Of a stretch of 64,000 nucleotides of DNA, positions 38,619 to 44,473 are shown piece by piece. Under the pieces are notes generated by a model that was given only the letters and a program-made list of their open reading frames with translations, had not been told where the DNA came from and made no database searches. The stretch's first letter is position 1. Each line of letters begins with the position of its first letter. This stretch comes from Candidatus Borrarchaeum weybense (GTDB taxonomy: Archaea > Asgardarchaeota > Sifarchaeia > Borrarchaeales > Borrarchaeaceae), in contig JAHQJS010000004.1 of the NCBI GenBank assembly GCA_019057385.1, forward strand, positions 598,408 to 662,407, read 5' to 3'. Position numbers and translations under genes: made by a program.

Positions 38619-40130
38619 TCATTTACTTTTCTTCTGAGCCAACTCTTTAATTGAGAAGTAATAGTGTGGGGGTAAACCCGGCGATTTCTGATATTTCTCA
38701 ATCACAGCCTTTGCGTTTCGACTTTTCTTCCGCTTTGACAGTTTCTCAACTAATTCTACATTGATAGGCTTCTCATTAATCTTTAAATAGCCTTCTTTTA
38801 CTGCATTCTCAAAAATTTTCTCGCCTATGCCTGTTCGGACAACGGCAGTGGACCATCCTGCCCCCGCTCCAATCGAGCCAACTGAAATATCTGCCAATTC
38901 GGAAGTTAAATCTACACAATAATGACATGCTTCTCTTGCAAATTCTGCAACTTCAGCAATCGGTAATTCGATCGGGTCACCTTCAATCCTGTGGAGGAAA
39001 AATTTGCCTTTATTGATATCTGTCTTCTTCACATCACTTAGTTGAACTCCGCCCTTCTCTGCGATCTTTTTTACTCCTTCATAAGGGAAGCTTTCCATGC
39101 AAAATAGCCCGAAAATCGCGACTATCTCGCCAAAAGTATCCTTAAAGGTCTCGCCATAGTAACACTGGTATTTTCGCAAGGCTTGAAGCATGCAAGGTGT
39201 TCCAACTACGCATATTTTCTCGCATTCAGATTTTCGTACGGTGTCTAAAATTGATAGATTGGGAGACATTGCGTATTTAGTCCCTGCACATTTGACTAAT
39301 TCTGCAACATTTCTTACAATTCGCGGTTGTGGTTTCCATGGGTCATCTTCAAGTCCTACGACAATTGCTCCATCAATTTCCCCTTTTTCCAATAAGTAAG
39401 CGACTAATGACGTGACGACTCCACCATCTTGTTTTACCGTTTTTATGGTATCATCAGTGCATTGTGCCATTACGCATTTCTTATAACGTCCAATTGGTTC
39501 TTCTTTAAAGTGATCACGATTAATGATGTTGTTTCCTAAGCCTTTAAGCAGTCCTATCGGCAGGAAAGTCCTCGGACAATTTTCAAAGCAAAGTGAGCAG
39601 TGTATACATACGTCTTCATCGAGAATTGGTCCATCATCACTTACTGAAAGTGCATTTACTGGACAAACTGAGACGCATAATCCGCAGAAAGTACATAGGC
39701 GCGTTGCTAAAATGTTTTGTACTGATTGACCTACAGCAACGTCAGTTGGCGGAAGTAGGCTTAATCTAAGTAATTCATCTTCAACGATTTCGGAAATTCT
39801 TGTTCTGAAGACCAGCTCATCTTTGGTAGATATGCTTTCAACTTTTCCCTCCGATTCTAGATGTAAAAGATGTGAATAGACGTCAAATTCTTCTAAGTCC
39901 AATTCGTTTGCCAATCGAGAAATAGAAACTCCGTCTTTAAGGGCTAACTTAGATAAGATTAATTGTCTTCTTAAATCGTCTTCAAACACTTGATCTTCAA
40001 TATAGTGAATCATGTTAATATCAAGTTTGCCCTTTTTTATAATCTCCTCTTCATTCTCTAGAAGAACTTTCGTTCTAAAGTTCTCTGCGGTATCTACAAT
40101 TGCATTCAATTTTTCCTTCAGTTCAACCAA
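38619..40130 (-). CDS. N-terminal winged helix + ferredoxin + F420-binding FrhB-family protein
   Basis: wHTH (VSISRLANELDL..VYSHLLHLESEGKV), 2x CxxCxxC, QDGGVVT, GTKY, VGTPC, GLFCMESF, CHYC, DISVGS. Confidence 0.85.
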   Translation of the reverse strand: MVELKEKLNAIVDTAENFRTKVLLENEEEIIKKGKLDINMIHYIEDQVFEDDLRRQLILSKLALKDGVSISRLANELDLEEFDVYSHLLHLESEGKVESISTKDELVFRTRISEIVEDELLRLSLLPPTDVAVGQSVQNILATRLCTFCGLCVSVCPVNALSVSDDGPILDEDVCIHCSLCFENCPRTFLPIGLLKGLGNNIINRDHFKEEPIGRYKKCVMAQCTDDTIKTVKQDGGVVTSLVAYLLEKGEIDGAIVVGLEDDPWKPQPRIVRNVAELVKCAGTKYAMSPNLSILDTVRKSECEKICVVGTPCMLQALRKYQCYYGETFKDTFGEIVAIFGLFCMESFPYEGVKKIAEKGGVQLSDVKKTDINKGKFFLHRIEGDPIELPIAEVAEFAREACHYCVDLTSELADISVGSIGAGAGWSTAVVRTGIGEKIFENAVKEGYLKINEKPINVELVEKLSKRKKSRNAKAVIEKYQKSPGLPPHYYFSIKELAQKKSK

Positions 40131-40736: not shown

Positions 40737-42689
40737 CTATGTTTTTACTTTCAAAGTTGGTTTTAATGTGCCTGAGATCTCGCGAAGAAGTTGTTCGTCC
40801 CTGTGATATCTAACTGAAAGTGCTTTTGTTGGACAGACTGAAACACACAATCCGCAACCCTTACACGCAATTTCTGATACTTGAGCGACTTCATCTATAA
40901 CTTCAACTGCGTTAAATGGACATATGCGTTCGCATGTCCCACATGAAATACACAAAGACTCATTGACAATTGGAACCATAAGTTCCAACATTATTTTACC
41001 CTGTACAAATGCAGCAGCTAATGCAGCAACACCGTTTGCACCAGCTACACTGTAAGGAATATTCTTAGGACCGTGTGCTCCTCCGGCAATGTATATACCA
41101 GGAGTCTTTGTGTCCTGTGGATTGAGACACTCATGGATTGGCTTAAGAAAGCCGCTTGGGCCACGATCAAGTCTTAAGACTTCTGCGATTTTCAGCGTTC
41201 CTTCTCCTGGGGCAATTCCTGCGGAAAGCACCAACATATCCACGTCATCGCGGATTAGTTCTCTCGTCAAAGTATTTTCTACTCGAATCTTCAGGTTCTT
41301 TGTTTCTTTGTTTTCTCGCACTTCAGCAATCTTGCCCCTGACGAATTTAATGCCTGCATCCCTCACACGGGCATAATATTCTTCGCAGGCTTTATCTGGG
41401 GTGCGGATATCAATGTAATAGATAGTTATATCAGTGTCAGGATATTCTTGATGAATTAACTGAGCGTTCTTCATCGCTACCATACAGCAAACCTGACTGC
41501 AATGCGGGTTTGTTTTTAGATCTCTAGATCCAACACATTGAAGCATCCCTATTTTTTTAGGTCGCTTATTATCGGAAATACGTAATAAGTGACCACCTGT
41601 AGGTCCTGTTGGATTCAACAGTCGTTCTAGATCTGATTGTGTAACAACGTTCTCATAGATTCCGTAGCCATAATCGTTGTTTTCCAATGCGTCATAAGGG
41701 GCAAATCCAGTTGCCACGATGATTGCACCGACATCGATTTTCTTCGTTGATGGTTGTTGTTCTAAGTCTATTGATTCAGATAAGCAAGCCTTTTGGCATG
41801 CGCCACAATCGATACAGTCATCTTTGTTAATCACCGCTATTTTCGGGACTGCTTGTGCAAAGAGAATGTAGATCGCATTTCGAGTTCCCAACCCATTGTT
41901 GAATTCATTAGGAACTGTTATTGGACATTTTTCCAGACACGCTTCGCATCCTGTACAGGTTTCTGTGTTGACATAGCGGGCTTTTTGCAGTAATTCAACC
42001 TTGAATTCACCAGGTCTACCGCTTACGCTTTGAACTTCTGTATAGGTTAAGATCTCTATATTTGGATTTCTGGCGACTTTAACCATTTTTGGAGCTAGTA
42101 TTCAGATACTACAGTCATCGGTTGGAAAGACTCTATCAAATTTCGCCATAGAGCCCCCGATAGATGGCGAGCTTTCCACAAGAAATACTTTGATTCCCTG
42201 TTTTGCCAAATTCAAAGCTGATGTCATTCCAGTAATTCCTGCACCAACGACCATAACTGCTTCTACTGTTTCCAACTCAAGTACTGGGATATCTTCTAAT
42301 AATTCCGCGCGTGCCACACCAGCTGCAACTAAACGTTTGGCTTTTTCAGTTGCGGCTTCTTTATCTGTATGTACGAAAGAATCATGTTCTCTGAGATTTA
42401 CCATTTGGAAATAGTATGGCGACAATCCTGCTTCTTTTAGCAACGCGCGATATGTTCCCTCGTGTATCATGGGTGTACATGCTGCAACAACAATGCGGTT
42501 CAAATCGTATTCCTTTATAGCTTCTTTGATCTCTTGTTGTCCTGCATCGCTACAACTAAACACGCTTGTGCTCGTGTATACGACATTAGGTAAAGTTTTC
42601 GCAAACTCGGCGACTTCTTCTACGTCTACCACTGAACCAATGTTCACGCCTCACGCACAAATAAAGGCTCCGATGCGTACATTTTTCAT
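40737..42689 (-). CDS. hdrA: Selenoprotein HdrA (650 aa) with two Sec (U13, U196)
   Basis: ATG at 42689 after GGAGG: MKNVRIGAFICA-U-GVNIG (TGA 42651-42653) and PTDDCSI-U-ILAPKM (TGA 42102-42104). Both align with Cys in the in-window paralog (CHCGINIG, CALCILAPK); one continuous frame joins the ORF-track fragments. Confidence 0.93.
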
Positions 42690-42760
42690 AGAACCCCTCC
42701 TAGGGGTCACCTCCAATTGTGAACTTTTACTATACTTTCGCCAATTTTTAATAGGAGTAC

Positions 42761-42821
42761 AGCTGTCTAGTACGGGTATTTAAATTTACCTCTATTTATC
42801 TAGCTTTCCAAATAGACAGCT
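42761..42821. promoter_or_regulatory. 9-bp inverted repeat flanking a TATA-like box of the hdrA promoter
   Basis: AGCTGTCTA (42761-42769) and TAGACAGCT (42813-42821) around TTTAAATA (minus strand, 42777-42784). Confidence 0.4.
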
Positions 42822-43057
42822 ACAAAGTGTGTATACCGTTATAAACCTATCTTTAAAGAGATAAGAACGAATATGCTATAAGCAGATAAACTATTAGTTA
42901 TAGATAGTATATCGCATTGTAGAAATCCCATTATTTCGATAACTAAAAAAAGTACAAAAAAACTTTTTAAACCAAAGCTTGTATAGGTTTAGCTGGATTT
43001 CGACCCTAGAGCAGGGCGAAACTCAGAATTATTATTATCTAAAAAGAGGTTTAAAAA

Positions 43058-44473
43058 ATGGCAAACGAGCGAATGATTGAGTATTTACAATCTCGTATTG
43101 AAGGAATAGGTTTTAGAGACTTACAGGGCTTTGTTGTCGATAAAGACGTCTGTTGCTTCTGCGGAACCTGTGCATCACTTTGCCCCAGGATTGGTTTGGA
43201 AGAAAAAAAGCCAAAGCTTCAGGAATACGACCCTACCTGTTCTATGTGTTTCAGATATTGTGCAAGAACTTATTTTCCAGAAGATGAAGTTGAAAAGGAA
43301 TTTCTTGGTGGTCAACGTCAGAACTTTCTTTTAGGCTATTATCAGAAAGCAACCGCTGCGAAAAGTACCGATAATGCAGTAGTAAAGGTAGCTCAAAATG
43401 GAGGAGTAGTTTCCACACTATTGATTCGTGCTTTAGAGACAGGTTTAATTGATGGAGCACTTGTTACAGGGAAAGCTGGCAATTGGGTGCCGAACCCCTA
43501 CGTAGCGAGAACTCCAGAAGAGATATTAGCCGCTGCTGGTTCTAGATATACGATGGCGCCAAGTATGCTTCCATATTCTGAGGCAATATATGAATATGAA
43601 CTTGAAAAACTTGCTTTTGTTGGTATGCCGTGTCAAATCCAAGCAGCAAGAAAACTTCAACTATGGCCACCCCTTTCTGATGCACTTGGAAAAATCACAT
43701 TGATTATTGGGTTATTCTGTTCATCAAACTTCACGATGGACCTACTCAAGAATACAGTATATCAACAAATGGGTGTTTCACTGAGCGATGTAAAGAAGTT
43801 TGATATTGCACGTGGTAAATTCTTTGTTTACCTAAATGATGGATCGGTAAAAGATCTCCCAATAAAAGAGACTAAAGTAAACAATTGGGCATCTTGTCAG
43901 TATTGTAAGGACTATACTGCTGAATTTTCTGATATTTCAGTTGGCTCAGTAGGTGCGCCAGCCGATGATTGGAATACTGTCTTAGTAAGGTCAGATGTTG
44001 GTGCAAAACTGTTTGATGATGCGGTAGCAGCTGGAAAAATAACTGTTGCAGATACACTTGATCTCTCTAGGGTAGAAAAAGAATCCCTTAGGAAGAAATC
44101 GCAATTAGCGAAGATGGATGAGCGAGTGTATTCCGCCGTACAACTTTTGAATGTGTCAGACGTTGAAGCAAAGACCTATGCAACTCTCGTGTCTTTAGGA
44201 TACGCAGATATAACGATGTTAGCTAAAGTCATGAAGACAGAAGAAGCAGATGTTCGTAACTCACTTAATACATTACAGCAACGAAAATGGATATCTGCAA
44301 CTGATTCTAAATACACTCCCGTCAATCCGGCGAATGTTATCAAGGCAGAAATAGACAAATTCGAGGCAAACATCAAAAAAATCAAATCTGATGCATTGGT
44401 AGATCTCCAAGCGCTTTATGTGCAGAACAATCTCATGCATGTGCGCTACAAGGAATTTATGGACTTAATCTAG
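43058..44473 (+). CDS. FrhB-family F420-binding protein fused to a C-terminal TrmB-type HTH
   Basis: QNGGVV, GSRY, VGMPC, GLFC, CQYC, DISVGS; C-terminal LNVSDVEAKTYATLVSLG..LNTLQQRKWI..YTPVNP. Confidence 0.82.
   Translation: MANERMIEYLQSRIEGIGFRDLQGFVVDKDVCCFCGTCASLCPRIGLEEKKPKLQEYDPTCSMCFRYCARTYFPEDEVEKEFLGGQRQNFLLGYYQKATAAKSTDNAVVKVAQNGGVVSTLLIRALETGLIDGALVTGKAGNWVPNPYVARTPEEILAAAGSRYTMAPSMLPYSEAIYEYELEKLAFVGMPCQIQAARKLQLWPPLSDALGKITLIIGLFCSSNFTMDLLKNTVYQQMGVSLSDVKKFDIARGKFFVYLNDGSVKDLPIKETKVNNWASCQYCKDYTAEFSDISVGSVGAPADDWNTVLVRSDVGAKLFDDAVAAGKITVADTLDLSRVEKESLRKKSQLAKMDERVYSAVQLLNVSDVEAKTYATLVSLGYADITMLAKVMKTEEADVRNSLNTLQQRKWISATDSKYTPVNPANVIKAEIDKFEANIKKIKSDALVDLQALYVQNNLMHVRYKEFMDLI

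Follow-up and report, generated by a model that had tools for sequence, protein, structure and literature searches.

A conserved FrhB–TrmB fusion protein of Asgard archaea: a candidate F420-linked oxidoreductase with a TrmB-derived tail

A gene joining an FrhB-type reductase of the deazaflavin coenzyme F420 to a TrmB-type winged helix was analyzed in a stretch of 64,000 nucleotides of Candidatus (Ca.) Borrarchaeum weybense (contig JAHQJS010000004.1, here referred to as the window). With confidence that is about evenly balanced, we regard its product as an oxidoreductase linked to F420 in which the tail serves to pair the enzyme or to dock it. It would be an F420-dependent oxidoreductase module of the type found in the zeta subunit of a CO dehydrogenase complex, in FwdI and in FpoF. 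Electrons would move between F420/F420H2 at the flavin adenine dinucleotide (FAD), the [4Fe-4S] cluster of the core and the clusters of an N-terminal ferredoxin-like domain, and from the latter to ferredoxin or to a partner of the heterodisulfide reductase (Hdr)/MvhD type. The TrmB module, a winged helix with an amphipathic helix, was probably captured from a regulator and would have lost DNA reading in this lineage; it may hold two enzyme copies together or dock them to a partner. The gene and the parts of its product are located as follows.

43058–44473, plus strand: FrhB–TrmB fusion gene, an open reading frame (ORF) of 471 amino acids (aa), single copy in the genome
43112–43306, plus strand: N-terminal ferredoxin-like iron-sulfur (Fe-S) domain, residues 19–83, with invariant Cys 32, 35, 38, 42, 61, 64 and 68; homologous to the ferredoxin domain of zeta and to the C-terminus of FrhG
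43352–44053, plus strand: F420-reductase core of FrhB_N and FrhB_C, residues 99–332, with invariant Cys 192, 221, 280 and 283 as presumed [4Fe-4S] ligands
44063–44143, plus strand: two linker helices, residues 336–362, in which K346 and K347 are invariant; zeta and the FrhB paralogue of the neighboring hdr operon carry the RKK motif too
44147–44326, plus strand: TrmB-type winged helix, residues 364–423, with helix 3 at 396–408 and a wing three residues shorter than in canonical TrmB
44327–44434, plus strand: long amphipathic helix, residues 424–459, whose hydrophobic stripe is heptad-like and in which E431, N457 and N458 are invariant; counterpart of the coiled-coil dimerization helix of TrmB

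A preliminary description of this DNA had recognized a complete FrhB domain with its Fe-S cysteines, followed by a TrmB-type winged helix-turn-helix and a dimerization helix. This architecture was confirmed by Pfam, by the invariant Cys residues, by AlphaFold and by Foldseek. All three expected Pfam domains (the pair PF04422/PF04432 and PF01978) scored above their cut-offs: FrhB_N at residues 99–169 (5e-24, 84.6 bits, cut-off 22), FrhB_C at residues 183–332 (3e-43, 147.5 bits, cut-off 23.3) and TrmB at residues 364–422 (26.2 bits, cut-off 25.6; 29.7 bits when the tail was scanned alone). The TrmB-type domain is located C-terminally, and no match to the effector domain TrmB_C was found by Pfam in the fusion protein. 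The full-length AlphaFold model (predicted local distance difference test 80, predicted template modeling score 0.80) contained three tail helices (368–380, 385–392 and 396–408), a two-stranded wing (412–415 and 418–421) and a helix of 36 residues (424–459). Modeled alone, the tail adopted the same fold, for which Foldseek returned TrmBL2 as top match (3e-6) and MarR-type regulators next. The sequence profile of the tail matched TrmBL2 as well (1.8e-6). Since both fold and profile match TrmBL2, the derivation of the tail from TrmB is established.

[quoted passage not shown] Ethanoperedens thermophilum (PDB 8RIU chain B). It shared 38% identity with residues 21–363 (3e-81) and gave a Foldseek value of 5.8e-30 with a root-mean-square deviation of 2.4 over 349 columns. 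FwdI (8RJA chain E) and FrhB chains followed, the FrhB chains with Foldseek values from 1e-26 to 1e-23. The core cysteines C192, C221, C280 and C283 were invariant in 30 sequences and aligned with Cys residues of 8RIU chain B. Six of the seven N-terminal cysteines (C32, C35, C38, C42, C64 and C68) were likewise invariant and aligned with Cys of zeta, a CxxCxxCxxxCP motif spanning residues 32–43; for the equally invariant C61 the corresponding Cys of zeta lies three residues earlier. Residues 9–83 also resembled the C-terminal ferredoxin part of FrhG in a sequence match.

In zeta, the ferredoxin domain (residues 1–83) holds two [4Fe-4S] clusters and acts as anchor to the CO dehydrogenase and as electron bridge, the F420-reductase domain (84–349) holds FAD and one [4Fe-4S] cluster, and a C-terminal extension (350–370) makes the homodimer; the F420-reducing activity of zeta has been measured (PMC11493965). 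Among 121 family members of the fusion, conservation was highest in the ferredoxin domain and the FrhB core, with a mean column entropy of 0.99–1.11 bits. The enzyme half is thus complete and includes the relay domain that wires the flavin to a partner in every solved relative. From the homology with solved and assayed enzymes we infer the electron path given above. The tail begins where zeta has its short dimerizing extension, a position which suggests that it may pair or dock the enzyme.

[quoted passage not shown] However, zeta ends after an extension of about 20 residues and its gene lies in the ACDS operon, whereas the fusion carries a TrmB module of about 110 residues at this place and is monocistronic. 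The F420-reducing hydrogenase's FrhB, the FrhB domain of Fsr and FpoF contain PF04422 and PF04432 as well (38–40% identity to FrhB) but possess no winged-helix domain. Moreover, FrhB has no fused ferredoxin domain, this role being filled by FrhG in Frh. FpoF has been reported as a soluble ferredoxin:F420 oxidoreductase and is a possible model for a stand-alone role.

By analogy with these enzymes the fusion protein would use F420; some members of the FrhB/FdhB family take ferredoxin in its place. CofD and CofE were found above curated cut-offs in the own genome (C4:788011-788916 and C6:268717-269373), besides four further CofD-like paralogues. No CofG/CofH (FO synthase) was detected above cut-off in this genome, which is rated 100% complete. 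The presence of CofD and CofE without CofG/CofH suggests Fo uptake or another route. F420 biosynthesis in Asgard archaea is a prediction only and not demonstrated (PMC8498797).

The genome (4.18 Mb, 8 contigs) contained one copy of the fusion, while six further places matched as FrhB-family paralogues. Orthologues of 94% identity were present in Ca. Borrarchaeum yapensis and in a related metagenome-assembled genome. Full-length relatives formed more than 120 clusters (49–95% identity, 472–497 aa), and the named ones belonged to Promethearchaeota, Loki-, Thor-, Heimdall- or Hodarchaeota. A sample of 151 genomes of the phylum contained the full-length form in three families only; other FrhB matches ended near residue 330–350. 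Several Asgard lineages share the fusion as a conserved family present in single copy. The preliminary description knew of no characterized example, and in our literature searches neither such an example nor a paper on a fusion of this kind turned up.

To compare the tail with canonical TrmB, 27 canonical TrmB domains of the own and other Asgard genomes were aligned with 121 fusion tails. With the query copy and its 96% orthologue set aside, the control domains were 30–49% identical to the query. Four positions of the DNA-reading surface differed:

Start of helix 3: Pro in 26 of 27 canonical domains; Glu or Asp in 105 of 121 fusions; Glu in the window
Two residues before the Tyr: Lys or Arg in 26 of 27 canonical domains; entropy of 3.1 bits in the fusion family; Asp (D398) in the window
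Tyr position: Tyr in all 27 canonical domains; entropy of 3.25 bits in the fusion family; Arg (R400) in the window
Wing tip: Arg/Lys-Pro-Lys in canonical domains; three-residue deletion in all 121 fusions; deleted in the window

Around the start of helix 3 the window protein has T-E-E-A-D-V-R, compared to V-P-x-x-K/R-I/V-Y in the 27 canonical Asgard TrmBs. The preliminary description had noted an acidic recognition helix, and this holds for the N-terminal half of helix 3. Lys/Arg and Tyr were both absent in 103 of the 121 fusions; the Tyr was kept in 11 and the Lys/Arg in 8. Ten of the 11 Tyr-bearing fusions fall into one nested clade, and the last stands alone in another part of the tree; none of the seven members of the window's clade carries the residue. 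The Tyr could not be established as the ancestral state of the fusion: with divergent fusion paralogues as root of the tree, the Tyr sequences lie in this nested clade and in the single other branch.

In TrmB, TrmBL1 and TrmBL2 it is Tyr50, the residue to which the Tyr position above corresponds, and, to a lesser degree, Asp51 of the recognition helix that matter for DNA recognition, and the amphipathic helix behind the winged helix is a dimerizing coiled coil in TrmB (PMC4158304). The order of winged helix and amphipathic dimerizing helix is common to the fusion, TrmB, TrmBL1, TrmBL2 and MreA. The fusion module differs from this family by its C-terminal instead of N-terminal location, by the absence of TrmB_C and by the lack of the basic wing tip and of the helix-3 residues Pro, Lys/Arg and Tyr. 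The alignment shows that this lineage has lost the residues with which TrmB reads DNA.

Variability was unevenly distributed over the tail. Among the 121 family members column entropy was 1.68 bits for the winged helix and 2.13 bits for helix 3, and the exposed helix-3 positions (2.4–3.3 bits) were the most variable of the protein. The fold-core residues Y374, L406, R409, W411, Y419 and P424 are common to fusion and TrmB, and the hydrophobic stripe of the long helix is kept as well. The invariant surface residues E431, N457, N458, K393 and E395 are specific to the family, and nothing in canonical TrmB corresponds to them. A profile of the tail was searched against 1.84 billion representative proteins, and the subfamily was not found outside the fusion in this search. 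A stand-alone form was rejected, since the short matches are fusion fragments which retain the end of FrhB_C. Ordinary N-terminal TrmB domains came next below these fragments, at E values of 1e-9 and weaker.

The preliminary description had proposed a sensor-regulator of the bifurcating complex, that is, a one-component redox-sensing transcription factor. FrhB would sense the state of F420/F420H2 or ferredoxin, while the TrmB domain would bind the promoter shared with the divergent hdrA gene and control the selenocysteine (Sec)-containing Hdr cluster. We consider this unlikely. A winged helix-turn-helix with dimerization helix that passes the Pfam cut-off and finds TrmBL2 as its top fold match is what such a factor would need, the basic residues K393, K407 and R409 are kept in the family (the window's own protein has Q407), and the gene is always monocistronic behind long and conserved upstream regions. 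However, neither the wing tip nor the residues typical of DNA contact have been kept, helix 3 starts with E-E-A-D, and its exposed positions are the least constrained of the protein. Furthermore, sensing requires no fully conserved electron-relay domain, and the lack of an FO synthase above cut-off in this genome speaks against a sensor of F420 too.

A bifunctional trigger enzyme comparable to PutA would combine both halves. It would be an active F420-linked flavoenzyme whose DNA binding, perhaps weak or unspecific like that of TrmBL2, is set by the redox state of the flavin. PutA is a flavoenzyme with a DNA-binding domain for which DNA binding has been demonstrated. The analogy is functional only, in that flavin redox state could gate DNA binding; the folds are unrelated, and DNA binding is doubtful for the fusion. 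Purifying selection on both halves agrees with such an enzyme. TrmBL2, the closest relative of the tail, is a chromatin-like and largely sequence-unspecific binder, so that a variable helix surface would be tolerated, and positive charge has moved to other positions rather than being lost. On the other hand, the loss of Tyr and wing tip applies here equally, TrmBL2 itself keeps the Tyr, and the putative DNA contact found no support in this analysis. We therefore assign only a small probability to the trigger enzyme. Taken together, the transcription factor and the trigger enzyme come to a probability which is substantial and somewhat short of even. A tail binding DNA by a non-canonical surface, with the flavin/Fe-S enzyme reporting the redox state of F420 or ferredoxin to promoters of electron-bifurcating Hdr clusters of Asgard archaea, is given a probability only slightly lower.

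Several observations weigh against an oxidoreductase with a merely pairing or docking tail. Prokaryotic fusions of enzymes with helix-turn-helix domains are usually genuine DNA binders. The whole winged-helix fold is under selection across Asgard lineages, though the long helix alone would suffice for pairing. Ten of the 12 members of the nested clade have a TrmB-like P-E-I-I-Y helix. Summed over helix 3 and wing, the net charge is about +1.9 as family mean and +1 in the window, compared to about +2.3 in canonical TrmB; net charge was dropped as an argument against DNA binding, since the totals differ little and only the positions of the charges differ. The gene forms no tight operon with a partner, the upstream gap being at least 189 nt in all 37 loci analyzed, and it is preceded by gene-specific conserved motifs of a kind frequent in autoregulated factors. 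Finally, MreA, a proven regulator of the TrmB family, also lacks the Tyr (PMC4158304).

The region upstream of the fusion gene contained the following features.

40737–42689, minus strand: hdrA with two in-frame TGA codons (Sec13 and Sec196), first gene of the cluster hdrA–mvhD–frhB (502 aa)–hdrD-like–hdrC–hdrB–double hdrA
42690–43057, no strand: divergent intergenic region of 368 bp between hdrA(Sec) and the fusion gene
42761–42821, no strand: 9-bp inverted repeat (arms 42761–42769 and 42813–42821) around TATA-like stretches, nearer to hdrA and not conserved in sister genomes
42993–43026, plus strand: predicted hairpin in the probable 5' leader; 42964–42973 can also pair with 43048–43057 across the ribosome-binding site

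The head-to-head arrangement with hdrA(Sec) proved correct, including divergent transcription; the start of hdrA was corrected from 42690 to 42689. Behind hdrA, genes for FlpD/MvhD, a ferredoxin-FrhB of 502 aa, an HdrD-like protein, hdrC, hdrB and a double HdrA of 1038 aa are found in this order. A second FrhB-like gene and a GlcD/GlcF pair are located 3' of the fusion.

The inverted repeat in the shared promoter exists exactly as described, with the arms AGCTGTCTA/TAGACAGCT at 42761–42769 and 42813–42821. It is one of 18 inverted pairs within a stretch of 451 bp (42650–43100), and its 10-mer with one mismatch occurred 2 times in the window versus 2.6 in shuffles. In one sister genome (G020, protein 94% identical) the arm nearer to hdrA is lost, with about 90% identity in the flanks. 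Ca. Borrarchaeum yapensis (G050) has a TnpB-type element inserted between the two genes and retains the other arm only, which this insertion separates from the fusion gene. The repeat was rejected as an operator, being unconserved within the genus and not above chance, which also counts against the one-component transcription factor. No dyad was common to the window-type promoters.

The element in Ca. Borrarchaeum yapensis (L037:7713-9002) is TnpB/OrfB-like, a call made from the translation only. Its two ORFs encode 156 and 262 aa, a CxxC...CxxC zinc ribbon lying at the C-terminus, and it lengthens the divergent region from 368 bp to 1.8 kb.

The leader (42960–43060, plus strand) had a predicted folding energy of -24.7 kcal/mol (z -3.06) and was more stable than shuffles. 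The pairing of 42964–42973 with 43048–43057 over the ribosome-binding site is perfect over 10 nt. No Rfam match was found in the intergenic region at E up to 1.

No dyad or k-mer is common to all upstream regions of the family. Instead, two lineage-specific motif classes exist. The first, GATCATTTATATGT with AT-rich (ATATAT) repeats on both sides, precedes the start by 81–135 nt in 15 loci from various lineages (L105:9894-9904, L106:9894-9904, L109:9894-9904, L113:9885-9895 and 11 further loci). Its 11-base core GATCATTTATA had 22 matches in 138 fetched loci, most of them at the same place before the start of the fusion. Additional inverted copies of GATCATTTATATGT were observed at L095:11804 and L106:7374, adjoining FrhB genes of the 502-aa type. 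The second class, a GC-rich pair CGGTTTTGTTCGCTTGAA ... GGTCATTGGTGGGTTCGTTGCGCTT, precedes the start codon by 70–95 nt at about 12 other loci. It takes the form of a direct repeat GGNTTTGTTCGCTTGAA / GGGTTCGTTGCGCTTGAA around an AT-rich stretch (L102:3258-3386, L108:9872-10000, L119:6844-6972 and about 9 further loci). The upstream region of the window contains only a weak look-alike of these motifs.

These motifs favor a tight control of the fusion gene and could be operators; for GATCATTTATATGT a role as core promoter or leader is conceivable too. They do not co-vary with the surface of helix 3: among the loci sharing GATCATTTATATGT it reads K-P-E-I-I-Y-N, R-E-P-S-E-I-K, I-D-E-S-E-I-K or I-N-E-V-K-V-R. 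Because loci with the same first motif differ so widely, we doubt that the tail is the reader of the upstream motifs. The fusion gene would be its own transcription unit, and its regulator is probably something other than its own tail.

With respect to synteny, which the preliminary description had suggested to check, a gene for HdrA, MvhD, an HdrD-like protein or a 502-aa-type FrhB was present within 10 kb in 21 of 40 full-length fusion loci and absent in 19. The layout of the window recurs within the genus. The 72%-identical orthologues have no Hdr nearby and are surrounded by a major facilitator superfamily sugar transporter, hydrolases of the glycoside hydrolase families GH127 and GH4 and a radical S-adenosylmethionine gene. 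Neighbors within 6 kb were counted in 37 loci:

HdrA-like: 14 of 37 loci
502-aa-type FrhB, often adjacent: 13 of 37 loci
209-aa protein of unknown function: 10 of 37 loci
553-aa protein with the N-domain of methylene-tetrahydromethanopterin dehydrogenase: 9 of 37 loci

The fusion may be divergent, convergent or tandem with respect to its Hdr-type or FrhB neighbors, and it is divergent from a FrhB502-type gene in at least six other loci. Same-strand downstream gaps were at least 66 nt. The link to Hdr-type redox clusters is real, yet it does not separate regulator from enzyme. For the sensor-regulator, the divergent layout at hdrA and at these other loci, the link in 21 of 40 loci and the architecture hold up, but the operator is unconserved, the DNA-reading residues of TrmB are missing and the 72%-identical orthologues have no Hdr neighbor to control.

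Asgard archaea carry many Hdr/MvhD/FrhB clusters whose electron donors and control are unknown, and a conserved single-copy uncharacterized fusion adjoins such clusters in about half of the loci examined. If it is an enzyme, it would be a candidate entry or exit point for electrons of F420 or ferredoxin and a plain example of a DNA-binding domain turned to structural use. If it still binds DNA, it would represent a new class of redox regulator and a direct handle on the tuning of electron bifurcation in Asgard archaea.

A further reading lets the tail bind RNA, a small ligand or another winged-helix subunit, e.g. the N-terminus of the 502-aa FrhB of the operon; we give it very little weight. 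The family-specific invariant surface residues E431, N457, N458, K393 and E395, absent from canonical TrmB, would fit such binding. The FrhB502-type gene is the commonest immediate neighbor (13 of 37 loci), and its N-terminal segment has weak winged-helix matches. However, an hhalign comparison of the two appendages was negative, with a probability of 2%, and FrhB502-type genes occur in all fusion-bearing genomes searched but also in many genomes without the fusion. Homology of the TrmB tail to the N-terminal appendage of the 502-aa FrhB was rejected on the basis of this comparison and a negative BLASTP.

In the window the gene of the 502-aa FrhB is located at 38619–40130, and its N-terminus (39786–40130, minus strand) encodes a conserved segment of about 110 aa with an acidic putative helix 3. 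The profile of this segment gave weak matches to winged helices of the ArsR/MarR/Lrs14 type, the best at 0.0015. The 502-aa FrhB would then be another FrhB paralogue bearing an appendage that resembles a winged helix, one not related to the TrmB tail.

Two further neighbors were observed repeatedly. The 553-aa protein (L098:5365-7026, minus strand, and 8 further loci), often encoded adjacent to the fusion, consists of the PF09176 N-domain, an NAD-binding domain and an unknown N-terminus of 265 aa. A DsbA-like thioredoxin-fold gene is divergent and about 430 nt upstream of the fusion in five loci of one lineage group (L108:8967-9587, minus strand, and 4 further loci), with a DUF423 gene behind it. 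Open frames of 915–938 aa containing a 502-aa-type FrhB region (query residues ~20–450) were present in G140, G064, G076, G108, G131 and other genomes, showing that larger fused forms of this paralogue exist.

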